Shown piece by piece: positions 1 through 43,581 of a DNA stretch of 44,975 bases. The notes under the pieces were generated by a model. It was not told the DNA's origin and did no database searches. It was given only the letters and a program-made list of their open reading frames with translations. Numbering within the stretch: the first letter of the stretch is position 1; the number at the start of each line of letters is the position of its first letter. The position numbers were made by a program, and so were the translations under genes. The stretch comes from a virus: UHGV virus genome UHGV-0285350. One strand, written 5' to 3'.

Positions 1-374
1 ATATCACCACCATCTTCTGTACTTATGACGCCGACACCTTAAGCAAAGATCCGGCAGATGGTCGTAAAGTGAAAGGTGTTATCCACTGGGTGAGCGCGGC
101 ACATGCGCTGCCGGTTGAAATCCGCTTGTACGATCGTCTGTTCAGCGTGCCGAACCCAGGTGCTGCGGATGATTTCCTGTCGGTGATTAACCCGGAATCG
201 CTGGTGATCAAACAGGGCTTTGCTGAACCGTCTCTGAAAGACGCGGTAGCGGGTAAAGCATTCCAGTTTGAGCGTGAAGGTTATTTCTGCCTCGACAGCC
301 GCCATTCTACGGCGGAAAAACCGGTATTTAACCGCACCGTTGGGCTGCGTGATACCTGGGCGAAGTTAGGTTAA
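1..374 (+). CDS. glnS: glutaminyl-tRNA synthetase, C-terminal fragment (5' end outside window)
   Basis: Translation ...[100 protein letters not shown] matches the conserved enterobacterial GlnS C-terminus as I recall it; frame open to window start, stop TAA 372-374. Confidence 0.9.
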
Positions 375-400: not shown

Positions 401-426
401 AACGCCGCTACTGCGGCGTTTTTTAC
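401..426. terminator. rho-independent hairpin terminator, usable in both directions (glnS on +, Dam-type gene on -)
   Basis: aacgccgc-tact-gcggcgtt stem-loop followed by tttttt on + strand; on - strand the same hairpin is followed by ctttttt after a 3-nt gap; lies between two convergent stop codons (374 and 423). Confidence 0.6.
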
Positions 427-1328
427 TTCATTATTGCAATTATATCGTTAGCAACTACACGTGTTGACGCCTTGCAGGAAACCGACCGTCTGGCTGCCAT
501 ATGATGTACTTTAAACCCGTTTCCTTCATATAGTTCACGGATGTTTGGCGCACCACTATTTGTTATCACTACCTTAGCGCCGCGCTGGTGGGCTTCCACC
601 AATAGAGATACCAGCCGTTTCTGTTCGTCGAAACGGAAGCTATTTCCTGAATAACTGGTAAACCCTTCTGTATCCGGCAGCGGTTCATACGGCGGATCGC
701 AAAAAATCACATCGCCTTCACCAGCCGCCTCGATGACGCCAGCAAAGTCACCTGATACAAAGGACGTGTTTTTGAGTACGTCATCAGCCAAAAATGCCTC
801 CATCTCTGCATGTGGGAAGTAGGGCGCTTTGTATTTGCCATACCCCACGTTGAACTCGCCATTTTGGTTGTACCGCGTTACGCCATTAAAACAGTGCCGA
901 TTAAGGTACAAAAAGGCGGCAGCATGATGTAGCTGGTCATACTTTCCTCTGTTAAATGCCTCACGCACTTCGAGGTAAGCGTCAGCGTTGTTGTAATTTT
1001 TGAAAAAACTATATGACAGCGTGACGAGCGAATGTCCTTCTCGCTGCAATGTCTGATAGAAGTTAATCAGGTCACCGTTAATATCATTAAGCAGGTTGTG
1101 GCGAAATCCTGCATTCGTAAATACGGAACCGCCACCAACGAATGGTTCTATTAACCGCTTACCGTGTGGTAGATGCTCAAGCACTGTAGGCAATTCTGAG
1201 AATTTACCACCTACCCATTTGAATATCGGACGCTCATATTCATCCGGAGTCCGAATGGTGCGCATATAGCTAATTTCAGCCATCGTATCCTGTTTTTTTA
1301 TGGCTATGCTTGCTATAGATTTACTCAT
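423..1328 (-). CDS. DNA adenine (N6) methyltransferase, Dam / D12 class
   Basis: Translation has FKWVGGK (Dam KWAGGK-type SAM motif) near N-terminus and DPPY catalytic motif; start placed at internal ATG (MSKSIAS...) preceded by AGGGGGTG SD; track ORF extends to 1424 but overlaps the upstream gene. Confidence 0.85.
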   Translation of the reverse strand: MSKSIASIAIKKQDTMAEISYMRTIRTPDEYERPIFKWVGGKFSELPTVLEHLPHGKRLIEPFVGGGSVFTNAGFRHNLLNDINGDLINFYQTLQREGHSLVTLSYSFFKNYNNADAYLEVREAFNRGKYDQLHHAAAFLYLNRHCFNGVTRYNQNGEFNVGYGKYKAPYFPHAEMEAFLADDVLKNTSFVSGDFAGVIEAAGEGDVIFCDPPYEPLPDTEGFTSYSGNSFRFDEQKRLVSLLVEAHQRGAKVVITNSGAPNIRELYEGNGFKVHHMAARRSVSCKASTRVVANDIIAIMK

Positions 1329-2001
1329 AGAGCACCCCCTTATTCGCTTCGAAAACTGCCTTTGCGAATCCATGTGGAGTAGCACTTCGAAAATTAGCCC
1401 TGTCAGGCCCTGGTGGCGCGGCATGGATTCTGTTATCTGGCTTGCCTAATGATTCGTCCATTAGGGCATCAGGCATGACAAAGCCCTGGCCGCTCCAGAG
1501 GCATGTTTTTTTGGTGTAGTTATCTTCCTGACAATATGCAGTGAAGAAGTAAGGGTGAAAGATGTGATCTGGCTTACGCCAGAATGTCGATATTTTGCTG
1601 ACCGGATTTTCAATCATGTACGGACAACCGATCATCTTTGCAATGTCATAACACTGCCAGACAACCTGCATTGCTTTGAACTGGAAAACCGGATCTTTAT
1701 TAGCCTTGTCCGAAAACCAGCGCGCGCCGGAAACAGCCAGGTCAGTACACGGTGGGAACCCGGCCAGAAACACGATGCGCTGCAAATTCTTACGGAGAAA
1801 AGCGTATACTTCATCGCTATCGATGATCGCACTAATACGCGTCAGAACGGCACCTGATTGCATCAGCTCGTCACTGGTCGATAAGTGCTGTGGATCGACG
1901 ATAGCGGCATCGACACCGTATTCCAGCCAGGGGGCAACCATTGCCCCCGTAAAATCACAAAGACTCACAACAAGCGGTCGGTTATTATCGTTCTGCTTCA
2001 C
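1321..2001 (-). CDS. short C5-cytosine-methyltransferase-like protein (motif IV PC and motif VI ENx present; no target-recognition domain; motif I degenerate)
   Basis: [15 protein letters not shown] resembles C5-MTase motif IV (GFPCQxFSxxG) with catalytic Pro-Cys; YMIENPVS resembles motif VI (ENV) about 40 aa later; only about 226 aa. Start uncertain (GTG near 2001 after GGAGG, or ATG near 1941); overlaps rdgC 3' end. Confidence 0.45.
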
Positions 2002-2890
2002 CGCCAATGGCCTCCACCAGCGCGTTAAACAGTGCAGATAATTCGCCCGTAAAGAGCACGAAATCAGCATCAAATCGTTGTGCTACATCCTCCCGGTCGA
2101 TATCGTCGTTCTGGTCATAGAGATCATCACAGAATGTCAGGGCTTTGATACTCATATCATCGTTGACTCTGAACGACGCGCGGTCCATCCAGTTAATTGC
2201 AACGGTCGTAGCTACTTTCCCCGCCTCAATGTGAGACATAATCTCGTCGGACTGTAGATCAACTTTGTTGCAGCGAACGGCACCACCATTATCGAGCAGA
2301 CCCTTTAATGTGGCGTCTTCACCTGCTGTAAATCCGGCAGGGAAGCCGTTTTTAAACCACTCGGTCATTGTAATTTCCAGCGGTTCGCGTGGTGTGAATG
2401 GAATGACAGGCAGGCTGCCGAGCGATTTTCGCAATAAAGCCAGCTGGTCCTCTGCCTTTTTGGCGCTGCTTGCCTCAACGAATACCAGATGGTTGCTGCG
2501 GTCGATCAGGATTTTGGCGAGTGATTTTCTCGTGAAAGCACGAGGAAGAAGAGAGTGAAGCACTTCATCCTTCAGCGAATCTTTTTCGGTCTTCTTCAGC
2601 TTTCTGTCTTGCTCTTCTTCAAGTGTCAGGATTTTTTTCTGTAACTCTTCTTTGAGCACTTGAGAAGGTAGGATTTTTTCCTCTCGTTTATGCTGTATCA
2701 GAAGAAAACCCTGGTATTCATGGGTGAGGTTGTCACCAAGAACGGAGGTCCAACCAGCTTTAGCCATATCCTGAGAACCGCATGGGGTAAACACAAACTT
2801 GCTAAGGGCTGCATTTACTTCTGCAGTATCCCAGCTAACTTCGCGTGAAAGACGATAGATGAAGATATTTTTGAAAGCGACTGATCTCAT
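1985..2890 (-). CDS. rdgC: recombination-associated protein RdgC homologue
   Basis: Full-length similarity to my recollection of enterobacterial RdgC ([14 protein letters not shown]..., [15 protein letters not shown]..., [58 protein letters not shown]); ATG preceded by GGTGAG SD. Confidence 0.85.
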
Positions 2891-2896
2891 GTCTCA

Positions 2897-2940
2897 CCAT
2901 TTGTGTTAGAAAATACATATTAATTATCTAACACAAATGG
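2897..2940. promoter_or_regulatory. perfect 14-bp inverted repeat (ccatttgtgttaga N16 tctaacacaaatgg) directly upstream of rdgC start; candidate operator
   Basis: Read directly from sequence; halves are exact reverse complements; contains the recurring TGTTAGAA/TTCTAACA motif; AT-rich stem so unlikely to be an intrinsic terminator. Confidence 0.4.
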
Positions 2941-2949
2941 GTGCATTTT

Positions 2950-3603
2950 CTATCCTTTCTTGAAATCGAAGTTGCCAGCAGTGGCCTGAAAGGTTCCTCC
3001 TGCCTTGAAAGCTATGTCTCCGTTAGCGGTGACAGCAATATTTTCCCCTTTAACATTGATGTTGTTGGTTGATTTGACGTTAACACTCCCTCCTGCATTC
3101 ACGATTACATCAGCCGGACCAATGATATATATCTGCCCGGACTCATTCATGCCAATCCTTGAGCCTGCTGCCGTATTGGCAATTTCATAGCCGCCACCAG
3201 CAGTTCGTACTTCAAGAATATTGTTGCGGTGAATAACGAAGTCTTTCGTTGCTGAGATTTGGGGGCGGGGAGGTGCTCCATCTACTTCCGGCGGCGTCCA
3301 GCCGTTGCCTTTGCCAGATGCTTCTGGTGCAACGTTTGGAATTCCTCCCGGTGCATCCTGAGCGGCACCAACTATCATTGGGCGTCTGGTGTCTATTCGA
3401 CCGTTAACATCTAAATAAGGAAACTCTACCCAGACCAGGTCACCTTTGACTGTGGGTACAAAAGCGTTTCCGATGGGTAACAGGTATTCCGCCCAGGGTA
3501 GATCGTCATCAGGAACGCCATTCCAGTCAGGTAAAACACGGACTTGAGCACGCATAAGCCCTGCCGGGTGCACAGTTCCAACAATTTGCGCTCTACGCTT
3601 CAT
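2950..3603 (-). CDS. gpV / gp5-type baseplate spike protein (OB-fold N-domain plus Gly/Asn-rich beta-helix-like C-region)
   Basis: N-terminus IVGTVHPAGLMRAQVRVLPDWNGVPDDDLPWAEYLLPIGNAFVPTVKGDLVWVEF fits the phage baseplate-assembly-V OB-fold pattern; C-terminal repeats (IVNAGGSVNVKSTNNINVKGENIAVTANGDIAFKAGG). Confidence 0.6.
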   Translation of the reverse strand: MKRRAQIVGTVHPAGLMRAQVRVLPDWNGVPDDDLPWAEYLLPIGNAFVPTVKGDLVWVEFPYLDVNGRIDTRRPMIVGAAQDAPGGIPNVAPEASGKGNGWTPPEVDGAPPRPQISATKDFVIHRNNILEVRTAGGGYEIANTAAGSRIGMNESGQIYIIGPADVIVNAGGSVNVKSTNNINVKGENIAVTANGDIAFKAGGTFQATAGNFDFKKG

Positions 3604-4580
3604 TTGTTCGGCACTCCCAATATCATTCGTGTTGTGTAGCCTACGCGGTCTTCAAAGTGCGCAACATTTTTTACTATCAGCTTACGGGGCATTGATTCAT
3701 CAATGCGGTTTTCCTGGTCATAGCGGTATACGATAATCTCTATCACCATCCCCGGTTTTATATCAGGATTGCCTGCGACTTCTATATCCATTTTGGGGAC
3801 GAGAGACAGCTGCATATTGCGAAGAGTTTCCATATCAGAGTCGGATATATAACGCACTGGGAGTGAGCTATCGCCATATTCGACGTAGCCATCGGTCATG
3901 GAATACCCAACAAAACGATATTGATTCTTTGCTGTTGTCGCATGTTCCTGTTGGAGTAGGCGCATTTTGGACAAAGTGTATTCTGCTTTAGGGTTATTCC
4001 CCTCGTAGGTAAATGATGGCGTTTGCTTCATCAGATCAGCCAGGGTGTAAAAGTTAAATTCCCCCCGGCATACCCAACATAATGCACCTTTGTCTCGCGC
4101 TATCTCCGAAAGCATTTTTGACGGTTTGTCACCGGCATTCAGATGATATGTAACTGCGCGTTTTAGCACGCTGCTGGTAATTTTAAGCTTGCCGGAATAT
4201 GCCTTGAATATAGCGTCTGGTGTTTTGTTGGTATGTAAATTTGTGCGCGGGGAGGGGATCTTAAACCTGCGCACGTCTTCACTGACAGCAATAACGGTAA
4301 CAACATCACCAGCCAGCATTGCAGACGTAACAAAGAAATCTGTTTTAAAAGTGCCTGCATTACCGTTTGGATCGCCCATTTCAGCCACCAGCGATGCACC
4401 GTATTTGGCTTTCCAGTCATCAATTACGGTGCCGGTAGCGTCATGAATTTCCAGTTTTAGCAAAGGGGCTTTGAGGCTGGTTTTTTCTACATATACTGCG
4501 GTAAAAATCCAGTCTCGTGGCACTTTGTTATCGTTAATGAGCACTGACTGTAGAAAATATTGTTGTAACTCCTGGGCCAC
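3600..4580 (-). CDS. hypothetical protein, possibly baseplate hub (gpD/gp27-like) partner of the adjacent spike
   Basis: 326-aa ORF translationally coupled (overlapping stop/start) to the spike gene; hub assignment is positional inference only. Confidence 0.3.
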   Translation of the reverse strand: MAQELQQYFLQSVLINDNKVPRDWIFTAVYVEKTSLKAPLLKLEIHDATGTVIDDWKAKYGASLVAEMGDPNGNAGTFKTDFFVTSAMLAGDVVTVIAVSEDVRRFKIPSPRTNLHTNKTPDAIFKAYSGKLKITSSVLKRAVTYHLNAGDKPSKMLSEIARDKGALCWVCRGEFNFYTLADLMKQTPSFTYEGNNPKAEYTLSKMRLLQQEHATTAKNQYRFVGYSMTDGYVEYGDSSLPVRYISDSDMETLRNMQLSLVPKMDIEVAGNPDIKPGMVIEIIVYRYDQENRIDESMPRKLIVKNVAHFEDRVGYTTRMILGVPNK

Positions 4581-4583
4581 TTA

Positions 4584-5351
4584 TCACCCCATAGATATCG
4601 AGGTTTCGGTAATAATACGTTTTGCGTCCAACTCCCATGCTGTGATCACGTCTGCAATCACACTTATCGGCGCTTGTGTGGCATAAATACGCTCTTCTCC
4701 AATTGGTGCTGAAACATCCGTAAAGCCGACTTCTTTGGCATCCTGTATCGAGCAAATCAGCGGGACCGGGACACGAACAAGGTGAGTGGTTGCTTCAAAT
4801 TGTGTACCTGTCATCAGGCGAAGCCGTGCGCCCAGCGAATTACACATCAGACTCATGGTCGCTTTATCAGTTGCCATTAACGTGACGTCATACGTCAGAA
4901 TGGCCTGGGTGTATTCCAGTTCTGCTAAAGGCATTCCGGTATCCGGTTCGCAAAAACTGGCTACTTTTTTGCGGTCAATCTGCTGATCATCGTTGATATA
5001 ATTGATATCCATATTGCGTGAGATATTGACCAGGGGGAGAGCATCCCGGTTAATGTTCTGGTTTTCAGGTTTTCTCCCTTGCCCGGCATTTGCGCGACGA
5101 ACTGCTTTAAGAAACTCGATCGCATTGTCGAAACGGGCCACATAGACACGCTCTGCTGGTGGACGATTCAGGAATGACGCAAAGCGTTTTTCTTCCGGCG
5201 CGGGGGCCACCAGTAAGATATCAGAAAAAATGTTGCTGATTAGCGTCGCAAACGCGTTATCCACGTTTTCAAAGCCCGTGGTCTGGAATTTTCCTGTGCG
5301 TGAGGTTTGCCATTCACCTGTTCGCGCCAGGAGGGTTTTATTTGAAGTCAT
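4584..5351 (-). CDS. hypothetical protein (member of leftward 4-gene module)
   Basis: 255-aa ORF, 3-nt gap to downstream gene and overlapping upstream gene; no motif recognised. Confidence 0.5.
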   Translation of the reverse strand: MTSNKTLLARTGEWQTSRTGKFQTTGFENVDNAFATLISNIFSDILLVAPAPEEKRFASFLNRPPAERVYVARFDNAIEFLKAVRRANAGQGRKPENQNINRDALPLVNISRNMDINYINDDQQIDRKKVASFCEPDTGMPLAELEYTQAILTYDVTLMATDKATMSLMCNSLGARLRLMTGTQFEATTHLVRVPVPLICSIQDAKEVGFTDVSAPIGEERIYATQAPISVIADVITAWELDAKRIITETSISMG

Positions 5352-6139
5352 TCGATCACTCCGTTTTGAGTCGTATCAAAATTCCTGGCAGGTATGCAGT
5401 AGTAAAGCGAACCAACATGCTGTGTGCCGTAGCTAAAAATACGGTGCACGTACCACCAGCGGCGCGCTACGCCGTTTACCATCTCTTCATTCCATTCAAG
5501 AATTGAGCCGACGGGGACGTTATTTGCTGCAATACGCAGAATCAGAACATCATCGGTTAAGCCATCCTGCTCACCGTCTGCGTCAATCGCATGGAAAGAG
5601 TCACGCCCGTCAGGGTTATCCAGCACATAAACGATTTCAGGTTCCTGGTAAGTCAGTTCGCGTTGGTTGTTATCCAGTTCGGTGAATGACTCTTCTCCTG
5701 TTTCGTCGCTGACTACCCCATATGTGCCAACATCTGGTCGATATAAGAGAGCCTGAAACGCGTCTGGGCTGGATTCAATAATCAGCATCCAGTCTGCGCG
5801 GATTTGGTCGTTAAAGGCTTTATGCCCGTTATAGCGTGCTTTTAACTGTGGAGTCGGTTCTCTGCCAGCCAGGGAAGATGGAAGTATGGCTATATCTGAT
5901 TCGCCAGCATCCGGAGTAAGGCCACCGTTGCTATCAGCAAAATTATCATGGCTATCAGCTTTGGCGGCGGGTTGCTCTTCCAGAATGCTGAATGAATCCG
6001 AACCGGTATTGCCATGTTCCGGCGCGCCTCCTGCATTCGCTTCAATCGGCGCTGGCGTTTCTCTCTGCGTGCTGTCATGTTCTGACTCCTTACTTGCCAG
6101 GTTTGCATCGTCAGCAAACCATTCGTCAAAACGGCCCAT
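5348..6139 (-). CDS. hypothetical protein with acidic, low-complexity N-terminal half
   Basis: First gene of the leftward module; start placed at ATG (MGRFDEW...) 6 nt after AGGA; track ORF begins at TTG 6151. Confidence 0.5.
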   Translation of the reverse strand: MGRFDEWFADDANLASKESEHDSTQRETPAPIEANAGGAPEHGNTGSDSFSILEEQPAAKADSHDNFADSNGGLTPDAGESDIAILPSSLAGREPTPQLKARYNGHKAFNDQIRADWMLIIESSPDAFQALLYRPDVGTYGVVSDETGEESFTELDNNQRELTYQEPEIVYVLDNPDGRDSFHAIDADGEQDGLTDDVLILRIAANNVPVGSILEWNEEMVNGVARRWWYVHRIFSYGTQHVGSLYYCIPARNFDTTQNGVIE

Positions 6140-6233
6140 AAGCATCCTCAAAGGTCGATCTGTCAGGTATCGAAAGGAAGATTTTCTGGAGATTGTGATT
6201 TTGGATGAAGGAGGGGGAATTCATAAAATGCAC

Positions 6234-6262
6234 TTGCGCACAGTGCAGCGGTGCGCTATAGT
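6234..6262 (+). promoter_or_regulatory. candidate sigma70 promoter for higBA (-35 TTGCGC, 17-bp spacer, -10 TATAGT) overlapped by inverted repeat GCGCAC-N9-GTGCGC
   Basis: Hexamers and spacing read from sequence; palindrome overlapping the spacer is the usual arrangement for antitoxin autorepression. Confidence 0.4.
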
Positions 6263-6301
6263 TATGGCATTCGGTAATCATCACGGAGGATCAAATGACT
6301 A

Positions 6302-6604
6302 ATGACCAAAAAAATTAACATAAAGGATTTCAGGGATGCGTGGCTTGATGATTTTTTTGAATTTTCAACACCACATAGAAAGATACCTCCTGATATTCAT
6401 ATGACATTGTCACGGAAGTTGGACATTATCAATGCCGCAACTACCTGTAAGGATTTAAGATCACCACCAGGTAATCGGTATGAGGAACTGTCAGGGAAGC
6501 TAAATGGCTATTCATCAGTAAGGGTGAATAAGCAATATAGGTTAATTTTTAAGTGGGTTAACGGAAAGGCCGAGGACTTGTATCTCGACCCTCACAAATA
6601 CTAA
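6302..6604 (+). CDS. higB: type II toxin HigB (RelE/ParE superfamily)
   Basis: C-terminal LSGKLNGYSSVRVNKQYRLIFKWVNGKAEDLYLDPHKY aligns with HigB LKGDREGYWSITVRANWRITFQFINGDAYILNYEDYH; toxin-first order with HTH antitoxin directly downstream. Confidence 0.8.
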   Translation: MTKKINIKDFRDAWLDDFFEFSTPHRKIPPDIHMTLSRKLDIINAATTCKDLRSPPGNRYEELSGKLNGYSSVRVNKQYRLIFKWVNGKAEDLYLDPHKY

Positions 6605-6674
6605 AACAGATACCCGGTTACGGACCGGGTTCTGACCAGAGTCCACTTAATACGCACGCTAGTAAGGGCAAAAA

Positions 6675-7013
6675 ATGAAACAGGCAACCAGAAAACCGAC
6701 GACCGTAGGTGATATCCTGCTGTACGAATACCTGGAGCCGTTAGAGCTGAAGATCAACGAGTTGGCAGAAATACTTCATGTTCATCGTAACACCGTAAGT
6801 GCTCTTGTTAATAATAATCGTAAGCTAACGATGGATATGGCATATCGCCTGGCAAAAGCATTCGATACTTCTGTAGATTTTTGGATTAATCTTCAGACCG
6901 CAGTAGACCTGTGGGAAGTCGAAAATGATATGCGCGTTCAGGAAGAGTTAAGTCGTATCAATACTGCTGAAAAATTTATTTCTCAGCGGAACCTGAATAA
7001 AAAAGCAGCCTGA
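6675..7013 (+). CDS. higA: antitoxin HigA (XRE-family HTH, VapI type)
   Basis: N-terminal HTH LAEILHVHRNTVSALVNNNRKLTMDMAYRLAKAFDTSVDFWINLQ typical of HigA/VapI antidote proteins; immediately downstream of higB. Confidence 0.8.
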   Translation: MKQATRKPTTVGDILLYEYLEPLELKINELAEILHVHRNTVSALVNNNRKLTMDMAYRLAKAFDTSVDFWINLQTAVDLWEVENDMRVQEELSRINTAEKFISQRNLNKKAA

Positions 7014-7069
7014 TATAGTAAAACACATACAAAAAGCCCACTTAGCAAGTGGGCTTTCCTTTGTAATTA

Positions 7070-7372
7070 ATGAACATTAAACCTATCCGTACAGAACAAG
7101 ATTATGAGGCCGCACTGCGTGCGGTCGAACCGATGTTCGATAACGAGGAGTACGAGAAAAAACATTACCCAATTGAGCCACCATCACCTATTGAGGCCAT
7201 TAAATTCCGTATGGAACAGCAAGGGCTGACCGTGAAGGATCTGGAACCGGCGATTGGTAAGTCAAATCGTGTTTACGAAGTGCTAAATGGGACACGAAAT
7301 TTGACGTTACCTATGATTCGCCGTTTACATTCCCAGTTTGGCATTCCTCTTGAAAGCTTGGTTGGTATTTGA
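7070..7372 (+). CDS. second HTH (XRE-type, C-terminal HTH) antitoxin-like regulator
   Basis: C-terminal LTVKDLEPAIGKSNRVYEVLNGTRNLTLPMIRRLHSQFGIPLESL resembles HigA-family antitoxins with C-terminal HTH; no cognate toxin directly upstream. Confidence 0.6.
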   Translation: MNIKPIRTEQDYEAALRAVEPMFDNEEYEKKHYPIEPPSPIEAIKFRMEQQGLTVKDLEPAIGKSNRVYEVLNGTRNLTLPMIRRLHSQFGIPLESLVGI

Positions 7373-7434
7373 GTTTGGCGGTCTGGATGACCGCTATTTT
7401 CATAAAATAGATATTAGAAATCACGGTAGTTTAT

Positions 7435-8163
7435 ATGAATACAGATTCATCAACAGAAAAATTGACTGAAAATGATCTAATCAAAGTATCTTTTGGAGAT
7501 GCCATAAAAGACAAGCTTTTTAATAAAGTGTTTGCATATATATTCATTTCTTTTCTAATTATTAATTGGAAAGATATACTAATATTGATGAAGTCAAAGG
7601 ATGATATCCTATATACTTTATCTGTAACATTTGTTGGAGGTAAGATTCCTCTAGTTTATGAAGGCGTTTTGTCTCCTTGGTTTTATCATTTTTGCTTGCC
7701 ATTTATTTTTGGAATTATTGCATCAATTGCAGCTCCGATTGTCACTCTTTGCGTATCAAAGCTAACAAGTAAAATATATACAGAGATAAGGTATTTGGAT
7801 GCCGACATGGATCAAAATAAAAGAAAGGCGTTGCAAATAAAAGAGACTGAAATAATAAAAAGTATTAATGATACACAATTCAACAAAAGAATTATGGATG
7901 AAAATAAAAATGAACTTGAGAGATTGCTTAGGCAGCAAAAAGAGATTATGGCGGCAATAAAATTATTATATGATGATGTTGGAGTTATCATTGAGCTTTT
8001 TAAAAGTAGAGGGGTTGGTATTGACTCCCCAGAAAAGTTATATGATTTTGTAATGGCAATAAAGAAGACTTCGCTTTATAATGGTGATCATGATTTTAAT
8101 AAATTGGTTGCTGATATTTCAAATTTATTTGATAAAACGGAAATTGATTTTTCAAAAAGATGA
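7435..8163 (+). CDS. hypothetical membrane protein (2 predicted TM helices plus Lys/Glu-rich coiled-coil tail) in strongly AT-rich DNA
   Basis: Hydrophobic segments VFAYIFISFLIINW and FYHFCLPFIFGIIASIAAPIVTLCV; region about 7380-8200 is markedly AT-rich relative to flanks. Confidence 0.6.
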   Translation: MNTDSSTEKLTENDLIKVSFGDAIKDKLFNKVFAYIFISFLIINWKDILILMKSKDDILYTLSVTFVGGKIPLVYEGVLSPWFYHFCLPFIFGIIASIAAPIVTLCVSKLTSKIYTEIRYLDADMDQNKRKALQIKETEIIKSINDTQFNKRIMDENKNELERLLRQQKEIMAAIKLLYDDVGVIIELFKSRGVGIDSPEKLYDFVMAIKKTSLYNGDHDFNKLVADISNLFDKTEIDFSKR

Positions 8164-8196: not shown

Positions 8197-9390
8197 TTAT
8201 GCTTTTTTTACATACTCCATGAACATTTTTTCAGCTTGTGCTGGTGGTGTTCCAGCCATGACAAGCGCATCAATGAACGCCTGCTTCTTCAGTGCGAACT
8301 GATCGGCAAGGCGTTGCTGAAGCTCCTTGTTTTTCTGTTTCTCACGTTGCAAGGCCGCTTCTTTTGCTGCCGCCCGTTTTTTCTGTGCATCTGACAACTT
8401 TCTGGCCTTGGTCAATTGGTCACGTAGTTTGTCGATCTTGCCGTTGTCCTTTGCCAGTTTTGTACTTAAAGCTGCCTGGCGCTTCTGATAGAGTCTCCAT
8501 TCGCGTTTGGCGGCTTCAACGTTCGTTTTACTGCTACGATTGCGATTAAACTCCTTCTCGTCTTCTTTTGAGAAGTGTTTGGTTGTACGTCGGCGATCGT
8601 CACCAAATGCAATTTGCGTTGCAGCCTTTTGTAGTGCACGAGCAATACTCATTTGCCAACTTGCGGACTGTAACCGCGTCATTGAGTGGATCACGTGTTT
8701 ACAGGCGACGCCTTGTAGCTTAGGGTTACGAACTTTTGGATAGGCGTATTCTTTTGGCGGGGCCAGGGCAAAGTTACCCGCAGTAGCGATGTAACGATAC
8801 CAGTATTGATGACGACCACAGTCACAATCGAAAGACACTCGCCCGGCGCACAGTGATTTAGTGATTTTCAGAGCTGATTTATCGTCTTCTGCGATGTCAT
8901 CGACCATCTGATCCCATTCTTCAAAGCGTATCCGGACGATATGGTGCTGGTGGACGGATATATCCGATGCTTCTACGCGGATATTAATCACGTTGTGGCG
9001 AAGAGATACGGGTGTAGCTCTTTTGATACCAGATCCGTCATCCACGGCGTTATTTGCACGCTTAATATCGATTGCCTGGCTGGATGCCACCAGCTGGGCG
9101 TATGTGATGCCAGCCGTCTTGCTGTCATATTTTTCGCGCGTTTTACTCCGTAGCTTTTCGAAACCTTTCAGGTCGTCTCGCGTGAAGAACGTGCCGCCTT
9201 TTTTCTTCCCTAACTTGAGAATATCTTCGGCGGATTTGTTCCTCAGTCTACCTGGCGTCAGAGTCCGGTGAGCTTGTCGGCGCTTACGGGTTTGTTCTTT
9301 CCTGATAAGATCGAATAAACGCGTGAAGTCCTTAGAGGACAGACCGTCAGTGATATAGCGCCCGTCCTGGTTTTTCAGGAAATCAGGCAT
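8197..9390 (-). CDS. hypothetical protein with SWIM-type zinc-finger motif and Lys/Ala/Gln-rich coiled-coil C-terminus
   Basis: CDCGRHQYWYRY...GVACKHV fits CxC-xn-CxH (SWIM) pattern; 397 aa; stop convergent with the membrane-protein gene. Confidence 0.55.
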   Translation of the reverse strand: MPDFLKNQDGRYITDGLSSKDFTRLFDLIRKEQTRKRRQAHRTLTPGRLRNKSAEDILKLGKKKGGTFFTRDDLKGFEKLRSKTREKYDSKTAGITYAQLVASSQAIDIKRANNAVDDGSGIKRATPVSLRHNVINIRVEASDISVHQHHIVRIRFEEWDQMVDDIAEDDKSALKITKSLCAGRVSFDCDCGRHQYWYRYIATAGNFALAPPKEYAYPKVRNPKLQGVACKHVIHSMTRLQSASWQMSIARALQKAATQIAFGDDRRRTTKHFSKEDEKEFNRNRSSKTNVEAAKREWRLYQKRQAALSTKLAKDNGKIDKLRDQLTKARKLSDAQKKRAAAKEAALQREKQKNKELQQRLADQFALKKQAFIDALVMAGTPPAQAEKMFMEYVKKA

Positions 9391-9712
9391 TTTCTATCTC
9401 CGGTTCCGCGCTCGCGTAATCACGGATCTTGTTCCTCAGCCATGCCACATCAGGAAGAGTTAACGTGGTCCCGGCGGGCATTTCTTCCATTTCTGACTCA
9501 TGGCCCACCAGCACCCGGAATACCCAGCGCAAATCTGCATTGCCATACGCCCTGTAGGCTGCAAGGTCTGAACGATATACTTCATCAATCTTTATCGTGT
9601 ACTGGAAATTATCAGAGTGATACTCCGATACCCGCTTAATCATTTCCTGGTGAAACAGCGCACGAAAAATATCGTCTTCAATGTACCTATCGTCGAGTCT
9701 GCTATAGCCCAT
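9383..9712 (-). CDS. hypothetical protein (upstream partner of SWIM protein, overlapping start/stop)
   Basis: 109-aa ORF whose stop overlaps the start of 8197..9390; no motif recognised. Confidence 0.5.
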   Translation of the reverse strand: MGYSRLDDRYIEDDIFRALFHQEMIKRVSEYHSDNFQYTIKIDEVYRSDLAAYRAYGNADLRWVFRVLVGHESEMEEMPAGTTLTLPDVAWLRNKIRDYASAEPEIENA

Positions 9713-9905
9713 AACAAAGCCTCTCAGTCATAACCTGGGGGAAACTGTATGCAGGGTGTGAAATGCGAGAAACAGACAGGCCACCAGTTCAGGGGGATGT
9801 GGTTCATAAATCCCCTCACTGGTGACAAGTGACTTTCATTAATCTTTATGCGGGGGCCAGCTTCATTTGCTGGCATTAGATTAAAAATTAAACGGAGTGA
9901 ATGAC

Positions 9906-20285: not shown

Positions 20286-21164
20286 GTGAGTATGCATCAA
20301 GTTGTCAGCTTTTCAGGTGGACGAACATCGGCTTATCTCGTTCATCTGATGGAAGCACAGCGAAAAGCTGGCGCTAGCGTCCATTTCATTTTTATGGATA
20401 CCGGCTGTGAACATCCTCTGACGTATCGCTTTATTCGTGAGGTTGTGAAGTTCTGGAACGTACCGCTAACGGTGTTGCAGGTCGATATAAATCCAGAACT
20501 TGGGCAGCCAAATGGTTATACGGAATGGGAACCAAAGGATATTCAGACGCGAATGCCGGTGCTTAAACCGTTTATGGACATGGTTAAAAAGTACGGTACG
20601 CCATACATCGGCGGCGCGTTCTGCACTGACAGATTAAAACTCACCCCCTTCACAAAATACTGCGATGACCATTTCGGACGAGGGAATTACATCACATGGC
20701 TGGGTATTCGTGCAGACGAACCTCGTAGGCTGAAACCAAAATCGGGCGTCCGGTATCTTGCCGAGCTATCTGATTTTGATAAGTCGGATGTTATCCGGTG
20801 GTGGCATAAACAACCTTTTGATTTGCAAATCCCGGAGCATCTCGGGAACTGTATTTTCTGCATCAAAAAGTCCACGCAAAAACTGGGGCTTGCATGTAAA
20901 GACGAACCTGGTCTGATGCGGGTTTTTAATGAACTGGTTACAGGCAAACACGTCAGGGATGGTCATCGCAGAACAGGTAAAGACGTTATGTACCGTGGTC
21001 ACCTGACGCTTGACGGGATTGCCAGAATGTATGCCGACAGCGACTACAGAAATTTGTATCAGGCGATGGTGCAGGCCAAGCGGTTTGATACTGGTTCGTG
21101 TTCCGAATCATGTGAAATCTGGGGTGACCAATTGGAGTTGAAATTCGAAGAGGTAGTGGTATGA
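20286..21164 (+). CDS. PAPS-reductase-family PP-loop protein with C-terminal Cys cluster
   Basis: VVSFSGGRTSAYL is the PP-loop (SGGxxS) of the PAPS reductase / adenine-nucleotide alpha-hydrolase family; cysteines GNCIFCIKK and CSESCEIW suggest a metal or Fe-S site. Confidence 0.75.
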   Translation: MSMHQVVSFSGGRTSAYLVHLMEAQRKAGASVHFIFMDTGCEHPLTYRFIREVVKFWNVPLTVLQVDINPELGQPNGYTEWEPKDIQTRMPVLKPFMDMVKKYGTPYIGGAFCTDRLKLTPFTKYCDDHFGRGNYITWLGIRADEPRRLKPKSGVRYLAELSDFDKSDVIRWWHKQPFDLQIPEHLGNCIFCIKKSTQKLGLACKDEPGLMRVFNELVTGKHVRDGHRRTGKDVMYRGHLTLDGIARMYADSDYRNLYQAMVQAKRFDTGSCSESCEIWGDQLELKFEEVVV

Positions 21165-21640
21165 CAAACAAAATTGACTATCAAAAACTTCGTGAAATCG
21201 CTGAAAAAACAAAAATTGCTGGTGAAGCACCTGTAATGCCTTTCGATCAGCGAATTAATGCGCTTAACGATTTTATGAAGCACTTTTCGCCAGATATCGC
21301 GTTGGCATTGTTGGATGAAGTTAAACGCCTAGAAGACACAAATATTGATTCTATATGCCGAATTGCAGAGATGGAGACGCGGGAAATAAAACCAGCAAAA
21401 GGCGAAGTTCTTGTCGTTGTATCTGGTTTTACTGGTTGCGGAAAAAGCGCCATTGCCGGGGAAATAGAAATCGCGATGAAGGCTATTGGTGTACCGGTTC
21501 AGTGGACTAATGGCGATGCAGAAAAGCGCATGACAGGAGCTGACTGGCTGACAGCAATTGAGATGTACAAACCAACAGTGCGCATCGTTGAAGTTAATGT
21601 GCCACGCGTCCCTGGCATTCGCATCAAAGGAGGTGAGTAA
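21161..21640 (+). CDS. hypothetical small P-loop protein
   Basis: VVVSGFTGCGKSAIA matches Walker A GxxxxGK[ST]; only 159 aa. Confidence 0.45.
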   Translation: MTNKIDYQKLREIAEKTKIAGEAPVMPFDQRINALNDFMKHFSPDIALALLDEVKRLEDTNIDSICRIAEMETREIKPAKGEVLVVVSGFTGCGKSAIAGEIEIAMKAIGVPVQWTNGDAEKRMTGADWLTAIEMYKPTVRIVEVNVPRVPGIRIKGGE

Positions 21641-21816
21641 TGCGTGTGGCATGTATCGGCTTGTTACCGTACCCGACTCGTTTTTGGGCTTCTGCGCTAA
21701 TTGCAAAGCCACATGTACTGATGGCTGACAACATCATCCCGGCACCAAATCGCCGCCATACCGGTATTGCAGCGGCACGACGTGCAGCAAAGAAACGCAG
21801 GAGAGCAAAGCGATGA
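21640..21816 (+). CDS. possible small Arg/Lys-rich protein (58 aa)
   Basis: ATG overlaps upstream stop (TAATG) and is preceded by AAAGGAGGTGA SD; stop overlaps next ATG; not in track (<60 aa). Confidence 0.45.
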   Translation: MRVACIGLLPYPTRFWASALIAKPHVLMADNIIPAPNRRHTGIAAARRAAKKRRRAKR

Positions 21817-21995
21817 AAAACCGTAAGGCAAAAATTCTGTTAGCTCGCAGAAACGGTGTTGGGGTCTGGCGATGGTTGAGGATTAGTAACAGACGAGTGA
21901 GGTTGACGGGGTGTTGCGGGGTGATGTTGCACAGCTGTTGCAAAAAGCCCAGCGCGGCGCAAAACCGCTGGAAGAATCACACTAACGCAAAGTAA
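21813..21995 (+). CDS. possible small Cys-rich basic protein (60 aa)
   Basis: ATGA overlap with upstream ORF; CCGVMLHSCC cluster. Confidence 0.35.
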   Translation: MKNRKAKILLARRNGVGVWRWLRISNRRVRLTGCCGVMLHSCCKKPSAAQNRWKNHTNAK

Positions 21996-22012
21996 TTAAA
22001 TAATAACCAATA

Positions 22013-22038
22013 ACAGACCAAAACATATGTTTTGGTCT
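22013..22038. promoter_or_regulatory. perfect 26-bp palindrome CAGACCAAAACAT|ATGTTTTGGTCTG, followed by a second CCAAAA-N6-TTTTGG repeat
   Basis: Read from sequence; exact dyad symmetry around AT|AT; sits between the early operon and the gemA region. Confidence 0.45.
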
Positions 22039-22062
22039 GCCAAAAGTAGTGTTTTGGTCATT

Positions 22063-22341
22063 ATGAAGATTGAACAAGTCGGAATGGCAGCTTTCAGGCA
22101 ACAGGCTGAAAGCGGTGGCGTGGATGAGTTCGTCGTGCAGCGGTTCGGTGGTGTGTATCACCTCTTCGCTGTGAATCGCCGCGCCGGGGTGTCCTATTTT
22201 CTACAGGAACGCCGTGGCGATTACAAGACGTGGCTGTCTCTTGACCGTGCCGCCGCGTTCCTGTCGGGGATTGGTGTTTCACGTTTTACCGTGCGTTTTG
22301 AGGATAACAAACATGCTGAAAAAGATGATCGGGGCCATTAA
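22063..22341 (+). CDS. hypothetical protein
   Basis: ORF in track (22027..22341); start ambiguous (ATG 22027 inside palindrome, or ATG 22063); no clear SD for either. Confidence 0.35.
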   Translation: MKIEQVGMAAFRQQAESGGVDEFVVQRFGGVYHLFAVNRRAGVSYFLQERRGDYKTWLSLDRAAAFLSGIGVSRFTVRFEDNKHAEKDDRGH

Positions 22342-22708
22342 AGCCGGTCAGGCATATCTGGGGTGGGATGATGCTCTTTATCGCCAGACACTGGTCCGCC
22401 TGACAGGTAAAACCAGCACCACACGCTGCAATCTCGATGAACTGCGCATCATCCGGGAATACATGCACGAACAGGGATTCCCGCGCAAGGCACCCGCTGG
22501 TAAAGGTCGCCGCCCTCGTGTTGCAATGAGCAGAAAATCAGTATTATCCAAAATTGAAGCGTTGCTGGCTGATGCCGGTCGTTCCTGGGCGTATGCAGAA
22601 GGACTGGCATCTCACATGTATAAGCAACATGTGATCGAATGGCTGACGGATGATCAACTGTTTGGGGTGATGGTGGCGCTGGTTAAAGATTCAAGGAGAC
22701 GTAAATGA
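22313..22708 (+). CDS. gemA: GemA-like protein (Mu gp16 / DUF1018 family)
   Basis: MLKKMIGAIKAGQAYLGWDDALYRQTLVRLTGKTSTTRCNLDELRIIREYMHEQGF matches the Mu GemA/gp16 pattern; ATG after GAGGA. Confidence 0.7.
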   Translation: MLKKMIGAIKAGQAYLGWDDALYRQTLVRLTGKTSTTRCNLDELRIIREYMHEQGFPRKAPAGKGRRPRVAMSRKSVLSKIEALLADAGRSWAYAEGLASHMYKQHVIEWLTDDQLFGVMVALVKDSRRRK

Positions 22709-26551: not shown

Positions 26552-28210
26552 TTGTATACCAGGTGTGACGTGGCAAAACGTAAACTTTCCATTAAAGAGT
26601 TTCAGAGAAGCTTACAGGAATACATCGCCAACCTCCGCCAGACCATCGAGGCTGAATGTCTGGGGTTCGATGTTAACCCGCAGGCCACACAGGCCCGTCG
26701 GGCGGCAGTCTGCGACCCGGTGACGGGCTACGATTATTTTGTCGAAAACTATTTCCCGCATTACGTCCGCAACCCGGCAAAAAGCGAGCTGCATAAATAC
26801 CTGTTCAGCCGTCTGCCACAGGTTGTGGCAAGCCCTGACCCGGAGAACGACGCCATCGCCGCGCCCCGTGGTGAAGCAAAATCCACGCTGGTGACGCAGC
26901 TGTTTACCCTGTGGGCCATTATCCGGGCCATTAAGCATTACCCGGTCATCATTATGGACAGTATCGACCAGGCTTATCCGATGCTGGAAGCCATCAAGGC
27001 TGAACTGGAATTTAACCCCCGTTTAAAAAACGATTTCCCGGAAGTGTGCGGGCAGGGTCGCGTCTGGCGTATGGGGACCATCGTCACGGCCAACAATATC
27101 AAGGTGACCGTTGCCGGTAGTGGTAAAAAACTGCGTGGTCTGCGCCACGGCCCGTACCGTCCTGACCTGGTTATCCTCGACGACATCGAGAATGACGAGA
27201 TGGTGCGTAACCCGGAGCAGCGCGACAAGCTGCACGACTGGCTCACTAAAACCGTGATGCCGCTGGGTGAGGCTGGCGGTAAAACCGATATTATTTATAT
27301 CGGGACCATCCTGCATTACGACTCCGTGCTGTCGCGCACGCTGAATAACCCGATGTGGAAAACAGCCCGCTTTAAGGCTGTTATTCAGTGGCCTGCCAAC
27401 ATGAAGCTGTGGGACGAGTGGGAAGAACTCATCCGCAACAAACAGCCGGAAGCGGCGGAGGCACTTTACCGGCAGAACGAAGCCGAGATGCTCGCCGGGT
27501 CAGTGGTGTCATGGGCGGCGCGCCCCCTGCTGGCACTGATGAAAATCCGTGTCCGTGACGGTCATGACACCTTTGATTCTGAATACCAGAACGACCCGGT
27601 CAGCGGTGAAGACGCGCTGTTTGCGGGCTGCATTAAGTTCTGGGTTAACCGTCTTGATGAATGGGTGTTTTATGGTGCGGTTGACCCCAGTCTCGGGAAG
27701 AAAAACAAAAACCGTGACCCGTCGGCCATTCTCGTGGGGGGCTTTAACCGCTTTACCGGCATTCTGGATGTGGTTGAAGCCGATATCCGCCGACGTCTGC
27801 CAAACAAACTTATCGAAGACGTGATTAAGTATCAGCGGGAATATCACTGCCTGTGCTGGTCGTTTGAGTCCGTCCAGTTTCAGGAGTTTCTGCGTACCGT
27901 GCTGGTTGAGCGTTCGGCAGCGCTGGGCGTGCCGGTTCCGGCGCTGCCGGTCATCCCGCTGGAGGATAAGGCACTGCGTATCGAATCCCTTCAGCCGCAT
28001 ATGGCCAACGGCCTGATTCGTATCAGCCACACACATCAGACGCTGATTGACCAGCTGCGCCACTACCCCAAAGCTGACCACGATGATGGCCCGGACTGTC
28101 TGCACATGCTGTGGACGCTGGCGGTTTCGCGTAGCGCAAAATTTCAGATACACACCCCACGCAGCAGCGGGCGTGACCGTGGCGGGCGTTTTGGTTCAGG
28201 AGGATGGTAA
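26552..28210 (+). CDS. terminase large subunit
   Basis: ATPase motifs APRGEAKST (Walker A-like) and VILDD (Walker B) with C-terminal nuclease-like region; 552 aa; start codon uncertain (TTG 26552 or GTG about 26567). Confidence 0.85.
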   Translation: MYTRCDVAKRKLSIKEFQRSLQEYIANLRQTIEAECLGFDVNPQATQARRAAVCDPVTGYDYFVENYFPHYVRNPAKSELHKYLFSRLPQVVASPDPENDAIAAPRGEAKSTLVTQLFTLWAIIRAIKHYPVIIMDSIDQAYPMLEAIKAELEFNPRLKNDFPEVCGQGRVWRMGTIVTANNIKVTVAGSGKKLRGLRHGPYRPDLVILDDIENDEMVRNPEQRDKLHDWLTKTVMPLGEAGGKTDIIYIGTILHYDSVLSRTLNNPMWKTARFKAVIQWPANMKLWDEWEELIRNKQPEAAEALYRQNEAEMLAGSVVSWAARPLLALMKIRVRDGHDTFDSEYQNDPVSGEDALFAGCIKFWVNRLDEWVFYGAVDPSLGKKNKNRDPSAILVGGFNRFTGILDVVEADIRRRLPNKLIEDVIKYQREYHCLCWSFESVQFQEFLRTVLVERSAALGVPVPALPVIPLEDKALRIESLQPHMANGLIRISHTHQTLIDQLRHYPKADHDDGPDCLHMLWTLAVSRSAKFQIHTPRSSGRDRGGRFGSGGW

Positions 28211-42931: not shown

Positions 42932-43581
42932 TGTGGGACAAGGTTAATCAGCGCGTACAGCAGGCACTGGCCGCCGTTCGCCAGGCATTCAGGGTGGTGA
43001 CCGGTACGGTGGACAGTTCGACCAAAGTACAGCTACTTCAGCTGAACGGGCTGGCAGGCGAACAGCTGGATGGTGCGGAGTATTTTCAGCATTACGGCCT
43101 CACCACATCCCCGCCGCCCGGCTCAATGGGTATTGCCGTTCCGCTGAATGGCAATACCTCCCATACCGTCATCGTGGCCACAGAGCACGGCGCATATCGC
43201 CTGACGGAACTGAAACCCGGGGAAGTGGCCCTGTATACCGATGAAGGCGCGAAAATCGTACTGAAGCGCGGACGGGTTATTGAGCATGAATGTGACGTTT
43301 ATCGCGTGAAATGCAAACGCTACGAGGTTGAGGCAGAGGAGAACGCCGCGTTCACGACACCGTTACTGACAGCCAGTGACAGGCTGACGGTGGAAGGTAA
43401 AATCACCGGCAACGGTGGCATGGCCATCAGTGGGGGCAAGAAATACGCCGCCACCTTTGAAGGCAACATCAACCATGTGGGTGGTGTGATTACCTCCGTT
43501 GACGTCACCATTAATGGCGTTAAAATCGGAACGCACAAACACCCGACCCCACACGGCATGTCTGACACGCCGGTTAATTAA
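42928..43581 (+). CDS. baseplate spike protein (Mu gp45 / gpV-like)
   Basis: 217 aa; N-terminal OB-fold-like region; C-terminal HKHPTPHG resembles the His-rich spike apex motif. Confidence 0.75.
   Translation: MMWDKVNQRVQQALAAVRQAFRVVTGTVDSSTKVQLLQLNGLAGEQLDGAEYFQHYGLTTSPPPGSMGIAVPLNGNTSHTVIVATEHGAYRLTELKPGEVALYTDEGAKIVLKRGRVIEHECDVYRVKCKRYEVEAEENAAFTTPLLTASDRLTVEGKITGNGGMAISGGKKYAATFEGNINHVGGVITSVDVTINGVKIGTHKHPTPHGMSDTPVN

Follow-up and report, generated by a model that had tools for sequence, protein, structure and literature searches.

The leftward spike-hub module of virus genome UHGV-0285350 as a P1-type late block of a D6-like phage-plasmid, joined to a Mu-like prophage

Results

Two phage genomes in one stretch of DNA

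The leftward four-gene module near the left end of UHGV-0285350 (44,975 nucleotides, the whole of which is called the window below) is, with a probability of about 0.95, the gene 5-6-24-7 late block of a D6-like (P1 group 2) phage-plasmid, and thus a set of ordinary tail genes. In the window, about 22 kb from a D6-like phage-plasmid of the P1 family precede about 23 kb from a Mu-like prophage. The sequence-only reading of this DNA had treated it as one phage with a single contractile tail, for which a second spike was unexpected; that premise is not sustained, and the two tail modules are adjacent because the two genomes are joined inside a shared 622-bp cassette. The second phage, a Mu-like transposable prophage, is the owner of the Mu-type pair at 41.7-43.6 kb, so that each of the two phages has exactly one hub and one spike.

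Layout of the module

The module is made of four ORFs on the minus strand:

2950-3603, minus strand: 217 aa, N-terminal OB-fold then C-terminal beta-helix; predicted central spike, P1 gp5 homologue, D6 orf66 gene
3600-4580, minus strand: 326 aa, GTG start; predicted trimeric baseplate hub, P1 gp6 homologue, D6 orf67 gene
4584-5351, minus strand: 255 aa; predicted tail terminator, P1 gp24 homologue, D6 orf68 gene
5348-6151, minus strand: 267 aa from a TTG start; predicted head-tail stopper, P1 gp7 homologue, D6 orf69 gene

For the last ORF, an alternative ATG at 6139 gives a protein of 263 aa in agreement with the D6 annotation and is the likely start; it is also where the earlier reading had ended the module. 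The hub gene lies directly upstream of the spike gene and overlaps it by 4 nt; the hub and terminator genes are 3 nt apart, and the terminator and stopper genes again overlap by 4 nt. With no overlap or gap above 4 nt, the tightly coupled leftward operon recognized earlier from the ORFs is confirmed. The neighbourhood of the module is unusual in that it contains methyltransferases, RdgC and a toxin-antitoxin cassette. Pfam and NCBIfam gave no significant match with any of the four proteins, so the families of P1 genes 5, 6, 24 and 7 are still missing from these curated collections; the identities came from PHROGs and from a sequence search of the PDB.

The spike

The 2950-3603 product matched P1 Gp5 in PDB entry 9vzk_q by phmmer (E=1e-55, residues 2-202 on 7-203 of 210) and PHROG 430 (E=5e-46), and its gene is 99.5% identical to D6 at the DNA level. 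The AlphaFold model of the protein (pLDDT 93.8) had as its best Foldseek match the same P1 baseplate spike, 9vzk_q (E=2e-21, TM 0.74), followed by the Afp8, Pvc8 and VgrG spikes, P2 gpV, the R2 pyocin spike and Mu gp45; IF1-type OB-fold proteins also matched, at the N-terminal domain. OB-fold and spike homology was found both with P1 Gp5 in sequence and with a series of spikes in structure. No Pfam match to PF04717 (Phage_base_V) or PF06890 (Mu_Gp45) was obtained at E<=0.1; a weak sequence signal pointed to DUF2345/VgrG and the T4 gp5 beta-helix, and PF04717 is scored by some distant members of the family of this spike. The earlier designation as a "gpV-type OB-fold spike" is thus right for the OB-fold spike and holds for gpV only at the level of the fold.

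P2 gpV and Mu gp45 belong to the same general fold class as the window spike (Foldseek 3qr8, E=1.5e-3, and 9ki1_V, E=5.6e-3) and have a self-sharpened apex, whereas a P1-type gp5 uses a separate PAAR cap: the beta-helix of P1 gp5 is blunt and capped by the PAAR protein UpfC (PMC12810830). T4 gp5 and VgrG are capped by PAAR proteins in the same manner as P1 gp5. The T4 gp5-gp27, T6SS VgrG and eCIS Afp8/Pvc8 assemblies, which are PAAR-capped, have in common with the window spike an OB-fold and a triple-stranded beta-helix, and the spike model matched the T4, VgrG and eCIS spike-hub complexes with Foldseek E values of 1e-4 to 1e-7. In contrast with them, the window has one small protein for the spike and another for the hub, with neither a gp27-like fusion nor a lysozyme domain, and sequence identity is below 20%; P1 gp5 likewise has no lysozyme domain. 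No gene for a PAAR-type tip protein (UpfC) was found in the window. In D6 this gene is orf57 (56589-56873), outside the D6 stretch matched by the window.

Hub, terminator and stopper

The hub protein matched P1 Gp6 (PDB 9vzk_1, E=7.6e-72, residues 6-325 on 16-337 of 338) and PHROG 1390 (E=3e-144), and this unambiguous, nearly full-length match bears out the hub partner that had been proposed for the spike. The terminator protein gave a match with P1 Gp24 (PDB 8jan_y, E=1.6e-14, residues 13-235 on 15-239) that is weaker than those of the other three, and a match with PHROG 1767 (E=5e-113). The stopper protein matched P1 Gp7 (PDB 9ums_B, E=6e-43), with which only residues 101-260 align, and PHROG 1906 (E=2e-116); its acidic N-terminal part of about 100 aa has no counterpart in P1. 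All four P1 proteins have been resolved in the virion, where gp5 and gp6 are trimers that serve as spike and hub, respectively, while gp24 terminates the tail and gp7 acts as stopper between head and tail (PMC12810830). By these homologies, the two remaining genes of the module are assigned as tail terminator and head-tail stopper genes and not as baseplate genes.

The left half of the window is D6-like

Positions 1-21632 of the window are collinear with positions 61213-82691 of Escherichia phage D6 in seven blocks of 93-99.5% identity, and up to 21980 the window is 99.66% identical to the D6-like contigs L079-L081. The DNA between 2800 and 6300 is 99.5% identical to D6, in which orf66-69 (NC_050154.1, 64162-67351) are annotated as similar to P1 genes 5, 6, 24 and 7. 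D6, a P1 group 2 phage-plasmid of the P1 family, carries the same four genes in the same order and with the same overlaps, as well as the same neighbours: hrdC and two methyltransferase genes downstream, a HigBA-like cassette and the gene 25 and 26 homologues upstream. The window differs from D6 here only by point differences and an indel of about 55 bp in the neighbouring HTH gene. Beyond 21,980 the two part, a Mu-like late region being present in the window and DUF4014, HNH, humD, phd/doc and cre in D6.

The D6 genome is complete and D6 is a viable, plaque-forming phage. The left end of the window lies inside D6 glnS, and the replication and partition genes of D6 and its remaining morphogenetic operons are located left of that point. 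No sheath or tube gene of P1 type was found beside the module in the window; D6 has its sheath, tube, wedge and PAAR genes in operons other than orf66-69, and these, together with the fibre genes, lie 10-20 kb left of the D6 point that matches the window start. The first ORF of the window (a GlnRS C-terminus) was considered as the chromosomal flank of an integrated prophage and rejected, since D6 itself encodes GlnRS (orf62) exactly there. Among 5,426 complete E. coli genomes, 97 contain the module in 98 occurrences, all 98 on plasmids and none on a chromosome; the plasmids listed are of about 60-97 kb.

The P1 genes 5, 6, 24 and 7 are homologous to those of the window over nearly their full length, with the same order and orientation, and cryo-EM structures (9vzk, 8jan, 9ums) give the roles of spike, hub, terminator and stopper in P1. 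P1 mutants in genes 5, 6, 24 and 7 yield particles that lack tails or have head and tail unjoined. The D6 lineage differs from P1 by the presence of hrdC-dmt directly after gene 5 and by the additional acidic N-terminal part of about 100 aa on gp7. The virion roles of the four window proteins are accordingly predicted from homology, the transfer from P1 being made at 40-55% protein identity, lower for gp24. By analogy, gp6 would occupy the baseplate centre as a trimeric hub and gp5 would form a trimeric OB-fold/beta-helix spike below it, with a PAAR cap (UpfC) encoded elsewhere in the genome, and contraction of the sheath would drive the tube-hub-spike assembly through the host envelope. At the head-proximal side, gp24 would be the hexameric ring that ends tube and sheath, and gp7 a hexameric stopper under the portal adaptor; by docking onto gp24, gp7 would join the head to the tail.

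The rest of the late block and candidate promoters

The region upstream of the module contains the following features:

6219-6247, minus strand: candidate promoter of the gene 7-24-6-5 block, palindrome TGCACT-N7-AGTGCA at 6229-6247 then TTTTATGAAT
6302-8163, plus strand: cassette of a HigB-like toxin, an HTH antitoxin, a second HTH protein and a low-GC ORF of 242 aa, D6 orf70-73
8197-9390, minus strand: P1 gene 25 homologue, D6 orf74, annotated as tail protein in D6; PHROG 1722, E=4e-197
9383-9712, minus strand: predicted baseplate plug, P1 gp26 homologue, D6 orf75; PDB 9ay5_S/9vzk Gp26, E=1e-16
9817-9831, minus strand: candidate late-promoter element upstream of the gene 26 homologue, CACT-N7-AGTG palindrome then TTTATGAA

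The cassette (GC 0.35) matched Pfam HigB-like_toxin (4e-35) and HTH_3, and PADLOC reported an N-terminal match to PD-Lambda-2_B. The gene 25 homologue had no match in the PDB; P1 gp26 is the baseplate plug (PMC12810830). In the P1 annotation, genes 26-25-7-24-6-5 form one late operon transcribed from LP26, whereas in the D6 lineage the 2-kb rightward cassette parts gene 7 from gene 25 and splits this single operon. Late expression of the module would be driven by a promoter of its own, located ahead of gene 7. The arrangement of CACT-N7-AGTG followed by TTTATGAA occurs at two exact sites, against 0.54 expected. The palindrome was compared with the -22 box of the annotated P1 LP26, which it does not match, and its identification as the P1 late-promoter box was abandoned; the sequence upstream of the gene 26 homologue differs from that box. 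The literature search yielded no usable late-promoter consensus.

The Mu-like right half

The rightward hub-spike pair noticed earlier in the right half of the window is real and of Mu type:

41735-42931, plus strand: hub of Mu gp44/gpP type; Pfam GpP-like_1st, Gp44-like_2nd and NMB1110 domains; PDB 3d37, 1wru and 9ki1
42928-43581, plus strand: spike of Mu gp45 type; Pfam Phage_Mu_Gp45, 2e-23; PDB 9ki1_V, E=1e-12

The two spikes had been called unrelated-looking, and no sequence similarity could be detected between the P1-type and Mu-type spike-hub pairs; the BLASTP value between the two spikes (E=0.079) is counted as no similarity. The right half of the window, absent from D6, matches Mu-like prophages that carry transposase, GemA and Mor. 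This Mu-like part starts in the middle of the genome, in the semi-essential region, and its left end is missing, with no c, ner, A or B. The Mu-like relatives that were fetched contain no homologue of the four-gene module. Among the plasmids of PLSDB, only an F-type one from E. albertii contains most of the Mu-like part, which is flanked there by conjugative-transfer genes and not by D6-like genes.

The junction

The two genomes meet within the following feature:

21359-21980, plus strand: 622-bp accessory cassette common to both elements, with an Ea22-like gene C-terminus and an ORF of 58 aa

This cassette occurs in many types of coliphage and is thus repeated in multiple copies among phages. 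Coverage by D6-like plasmids extends over 20700-21980, that by Mu-like prophages over 21359-22600. Mismatch maps placed the switch of haplotype inside 21682-21710, a stretch of 29 bp that is identical between the nearest known D6-like (L079) and Mu-like (L085) haplotypes. The source of the window is a short-read MEGAHIT metagenome contig, k119_1479 (ENA ERZ27298367, 45,007 bp), whose final assembly k was 119. A junction spanning both sides was present in 0 of 5,426 complete E. coli genomes (20,395 replicons), and the searches of IMG/VR, PLSDB and the complete E. coli genomes together with exact-protein look-ups returned only the parental arrangements, the source contig itself excepted. In the D6-type arrangement DUF4014, HNH and humD come after Ea22, and in the Mu-type one GemA comes after DUF2786 and Ea22. 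Transposition of the Mu-like element into the D6-like plasmid at the visible junction was rejected, the homology starting in the semi-essential region with no c, ner, A, B or Mu end.

Discussion

Three explanations had been put forward for the left spike: a remnant of another phage or tailocin, an alternative puncturing device, or a module with a non-tail role. The phrase "another phage" comes closest; the module is nevertheless an intact gene 5-6-24-7 block found, in complete E. coli genomes, on plasmids only. An orphan spike-hub cassette of a degraded phage or tailocin, deprived of its own sheath and tube, would agree with the lack of P1-type sheath and tube genes next to it in the window. 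However, the late genes of the P1 family are spread over several operons by design, with the tube, sheath, wedge, PAAR and fibre genes of D6 located elsewhere; the module and the surrounding 21 kb are 98-99.7% identical to a plaque-forming phage, with intact ORFs, and the plasmid location in 98 of 98 occurrences in complete E. coli genomes also speaks against a remnant, which we regard as very improbable. A function in defence or secretion, or as an alternative puncturing device of the Mu-like phage, is slightly harder still to credit. The unusual neighbourhood, with its methyltransferases, RdgC and toxin-antitoxin cassette, is the sole point in its favour. Against it, none of the four proteins is matched by a defence-system model of PADLOC, and each has a homologue that forms part of the P1 virion (PMC12810830); the Mu-like phage is already equipped with a gp44/gp45 pair, and those of its relatives that were fetched have no homologue of the module. 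Neither the puncturing device nor the non-tail role therefore stands beside the D6-like late block as an explanation.

Concerning the join itself, we lean towards a mis-assembly of the metagenome, without great assurance. The alternative is homologous recombination at the shared Ea22 cassette between a D6-like phage-plasmid and a Mu-like prophage, the four genes still building the D6 tail; this is somewhat doubtful. The plasmid could have integrated into a Mu-like prophage of the chromosome, or Mu could have inserted into the plasmid, with a subsequent deletion between the two copies of the cassette. The 29 identical bp at the switch (21682-21710) are enough for RecA and well below the k of 119, so that a trivial de Bruijn collapse is less likely; the mid-genome start of the Mu-like part is what a crossover gives and transposition would not, and P1-like elements integrated beside prophage genes have been reported (PMC10879196). 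Opposed to this are the absence of such a junction from the 20,395 replicons, the E. albertii plasmid that is the only one in PLSDB with most of the Mu-like part and has no D6-like flanks, the short-read MEGAHIT origin of the contig and the multi-copy nature of the cassette; moreover, among the plasmids listed for the 98 occurrences of the module, none is big enough for an added Mu-like genome. That one replicon carries two complete contractile-tail gene sets is, to the same degree, rather less than an even chance. If the junction is genuine, a single replicon may, more tentatively again, hold unrelated complete P1-type and Mu-type spike/hub tail sets with the Mu-like late region locked in, because the repressor and transposase end has been lost. 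In that case, both tail sets could be co-expressed when the phage-plasmid is induced, with mixed lysates or interference between the sets as the outcome.

With the module read as a D6-like late block, the tail biology is already known, the genes being 99.5% identical to those of a sequenced phage and the P1 homologues having been solved in the virion. Chimera and recombinant are alike in this respect: each phage has a single spike-hub pair. When a structural module seems "duplicated" in a metagenome contig, the cause can be two phage genomes joined at a shared accessory cassette, and the scattered late operons of the P1 family give a spike-hub block the appearance of an orphan. A real junction would add a further case in which a phage-plasmid has recombined with an integrative or transposable prophage via a promiscuous Ea22-type cassette.

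A leftward gene block homologous to P1 tail genes

The sequence-only reading had proposed a second gpV-type spike with a hub partner in a tightly coupled leftward module of four genes. The ORF table is in agreement with this layout: the first and the last pair of neighbouring genes each overlap by 4 nt, and the middle pair lies 3 nt apart.

Genes of the leftward module (ORF table, PHROGs and PDB match)
2950-3603, minus strand: 217-aa ORF, predicted spike
3600-4580, minus strand: 326-aa ORF, predicted hub
4584-5351, minus strand: 255-aa ORF, predicted tail terminator
5348-6151, minus strand: 267-aa ORF, predicted head-tail stopper; an internal ATG lies at 6139, where the module had been taken to end

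Escherichia phage D6 (91 kb), a phage-plasmid of the P1 family, shares 99.5% identity with window 2800-6300, and D6 61,213-82,691 is collinear with window 1-21,632. In the D6 record the four genes are orf66-69, annotated "similar to P1 genes 5, 6, 24, 7"; they are followed downstream by hrdC (RdgC) and two methyltransferases, and preceded by a toxin-antitoxin cassette and then by homologues of P1 genes 25 and 26. The 2800-6300 segment was present in 97 of 5,426 complete E. coli genomes, and all of its 98 places were plasmid-borne, none being chromosomal. An origin from another phage, one of the possibilities raised beforehand, is thus borne out by the D6 identity. A remnant of a phage or tailocin was rejected on the strength of the intact ORFs, their near-identity to genes of a viable phage and their exclusively plasmid-borne occurrence in those genomes. 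A defence or other non-tail role was also discarded, as no PADLOC model matched the four proteins and their homologues are virion components; the place of these homologues in the P1 virion led to the rejection of an alternative puncturing device too. The tube, sheath, wedge, PAAR and UpfB genes of D6 are located 10-20 kb to the left of the window start. The late genes of P1-family phages are spread across several operons, and this accounts for the lack of a sheath or tube gene beside the module.

At the left edge, a glutaminyl-tRNA synthetase fragment (69-374, plus strand) was considered as a chromosomal flank and rejected: it is the 3' end of D6's own phage-borne glnS (orf62). Two separate methyltransferase genes occupy 423-2073 (minus strand), whereas the P1 counterpart is a single fused bifunctional Dmt.

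Predicted roles of the four proteins

Pfam and NCBIfam searches with the four proteins gave nothing significant, and PHROGs placed them in tail families 430, 1390, 1767 and 1906 (E-values 5e-46 to 3e-144). Among solved structures, the 217-aa protein matched P1 Gp5 (PDB 9vzk_q, E=1e-55), the 326-aa protein Gp6 (9vzk_1, E=7.6e-72), the 255-aa protein Gp24 (8jan_y, E=1.6e-14) and the 267-aa protein Gp7 (9ums_B, E=6e-43, residues 101-260 only); a 109-aa protein encoded upstream matched Gp26 (9ay5/9vzk, E=1e-16). In the cryo-EM structure of P1, gp6 is the trimeric hub and gp5 the trimeric spike, similar to T4 gp5/gp5.4 but without the lysozyme domain, and with the PAAR protein UpfC as its monomeric cap; the tail terminator is a gp24 hexamer, the stopper a gp7 hexamer docked on gp24 below the portal adaptor, and the baseplate plug is gp26 (PMC12810830). 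By homology, the products of the two genes beyond the spike and hub are predicted to lie outside the baseplate, one as the tail terminator and the other joining head to tail.

An AlphaFold model of the spike, built from 36 homologues (pLDDT 93.8), gave the P1 baseplate spike as best structural match (E=2e-21, TM 0.74), followed by Afp8, Pvc8, VgrG spikes, P2 gpV, the R2 pyocin spike and Mu gp45; its N-terminal domain matched small OB-fold proteins. Together with the Gp5 and Gp6 homology, these results uphold an OB-fold spike with a hub partner. The "gpV-type" label holds at the level of the fold only, as the 217-aa protein matched neither PF04717 nor PF06890 in Pfam and the PAAR tip of the P1-type spike is a separate protein, which is not the case in P2 gpV and Mu gp45.

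The N-terminal ~100 residues of the gp7 homologue (5840-6151, minus strand) are acidic, of low complexity and unaligned with P1 Gp7. The P1 stopper caps the adaptor with its N-terminal helix domain, and the connector interface of D6-type phages may therefore not be the same as in P1.

Transcriptional context of the module

A single leftward late operon, with transcription from LP26, covers genes 26-25-7-24-6-5 in P1, whereas a rightward cassette of 2 kb splits gene 7 from genes 25/26 in the D6 lineage; the 7-24-6-5 block therefore probably has a promoter of its own.

Features around the module
6302-8163, plus strand: cassette with HigB-like toxin, HTH antitoxin, second HTH protein and 242-aa ORF
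8197-9390, minus strand: P1 gene 25 homologue, 397 aa, PHROG 1722 'tail protein'
6229-6247, minus strand: palindrome TGCACT-N7-AGTGCA, then TTTTATGAAT, ~70-80 nt upstream of gene 7
9817-9831, minus strand: similar CACT-N7-AGTG, then TTTATGAA, upstream of gene 26

The second HTH protein of the cassette matched the N-terminus of PD-Lambda-2_B, and the 242-aa ORF, of low GC (0.35), had no family match; the cassette may serve defence or addiction. The gene 25 homologue did not match any solved structure, and the P1 virion paper (PMC12810830) contains no model of the P1 gene 25 product.

Each of the two leftward late gene blocks has one palindrome shortly upstream of it, and exact CACT-N7-AGTG sites followed by TTTATGAA were found twice for 0.54 expected. 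The motif did not match the annotated -22 box of P1 LP26, and the palindromes are thus only candidate D6-type late-promoter or activator sites. The spike gene and hrdC are 59 nt apart, and the gap contains an inverted repeat (2897-2940; 18 nt, 94% complementary, 8-nt spacer) that is not followed by a T-run. As an operator or an RNA stem-loop, this repeat might separate the late tail genes from hrdC-dmt, genes which in P1 belong to a different operon, under the C1 repressor.

Two phage genomes in the window and their junction

The other spike-hub pair (41,735-43,581) is Mu-type, with Pfam GpP/Gp44 domains and Phage_Mu_Gp45 and PDB matches 3d37, 1wru and 9ki1. The two pairs had been described as unrelated-looking, and sequence similarity between them was indeed not detectable. 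Window 22,000-44,975 had no megablast-level match to D6 or other deposited phages and resembles Mu-like transposable prophages: the right half matched an insertion in an F-type plasmid of E. albertii (94%) and chromosomal E. coli prophages (95-97%). These relatives encode a repressor, Mu transposase A, the B ATPase, GemA, Mor, lysis, head and tail genes; between the DUF1804 gene and terL they also have a gene of ~740 bp for a DNA methyltransferase, which is missing here (26552-26560). The D6-like left half, the Mu-like right half and the rise in GC from ~0.47 to ~0.57 between them indicate that the window holds parts of two phage genomes, with one spike-hub pair apiece. The premise of a single contractile tail is consequently abandoned.

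The D6-like contigs are collinear with the window as far as 21,980 (99.66%), and contiguity of the Mu-like prophages begins at 21,359. The shared 622 bp form an Ea22-type accessory cassette also found in lambdoid, phiV10-like and other coliphages.

21359-21980: cassette common to both elements, C-terminus of Ea22-like gene and 58-aa ORF

In the mismatch maps, the D6-like haplotype is identical to the window as far as 21,710, with 17 differences between there and 21,980, and a Mu-like haplotype (L085) agrees with it at every position over 21,682-21,856; this places the switch within 21,682-21,710. The join is not a transposition end, because the Mu-like part starts mid-genome and lacks its left end.

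With 100% identity, the window corresponds to a 45,007-bp metagenome contig assembled by MEGAHIT (ENA ERZ27298367 k119_1479). No junction-spanning record was found among the replicons of the 5,426 complete E. coli genomes, and four other contigs with an identical Ea22-like protein run on into D6 genes. An assembly chimera at an inter-phage repeat is slightly favoured, given that the contig is metagenomic and that the junction was found nowhere else, but the exact overlap between known haplotypes is very short compared with k=119. This short overlap keeps a genuine, rare homologous recombinant plausible, as do reports of integrated P1-like elements adjoining prophage genes (PMC10879196).

The initial observation of a second spike-hub pair is hence confirmed and its interpretation partly supported. 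The D6-like/Mu-like join is by slight preference a chimera and somewhat less probably biological; either outcome leaves the identity of the four module genes unaffected, and the module represents already-known biology.
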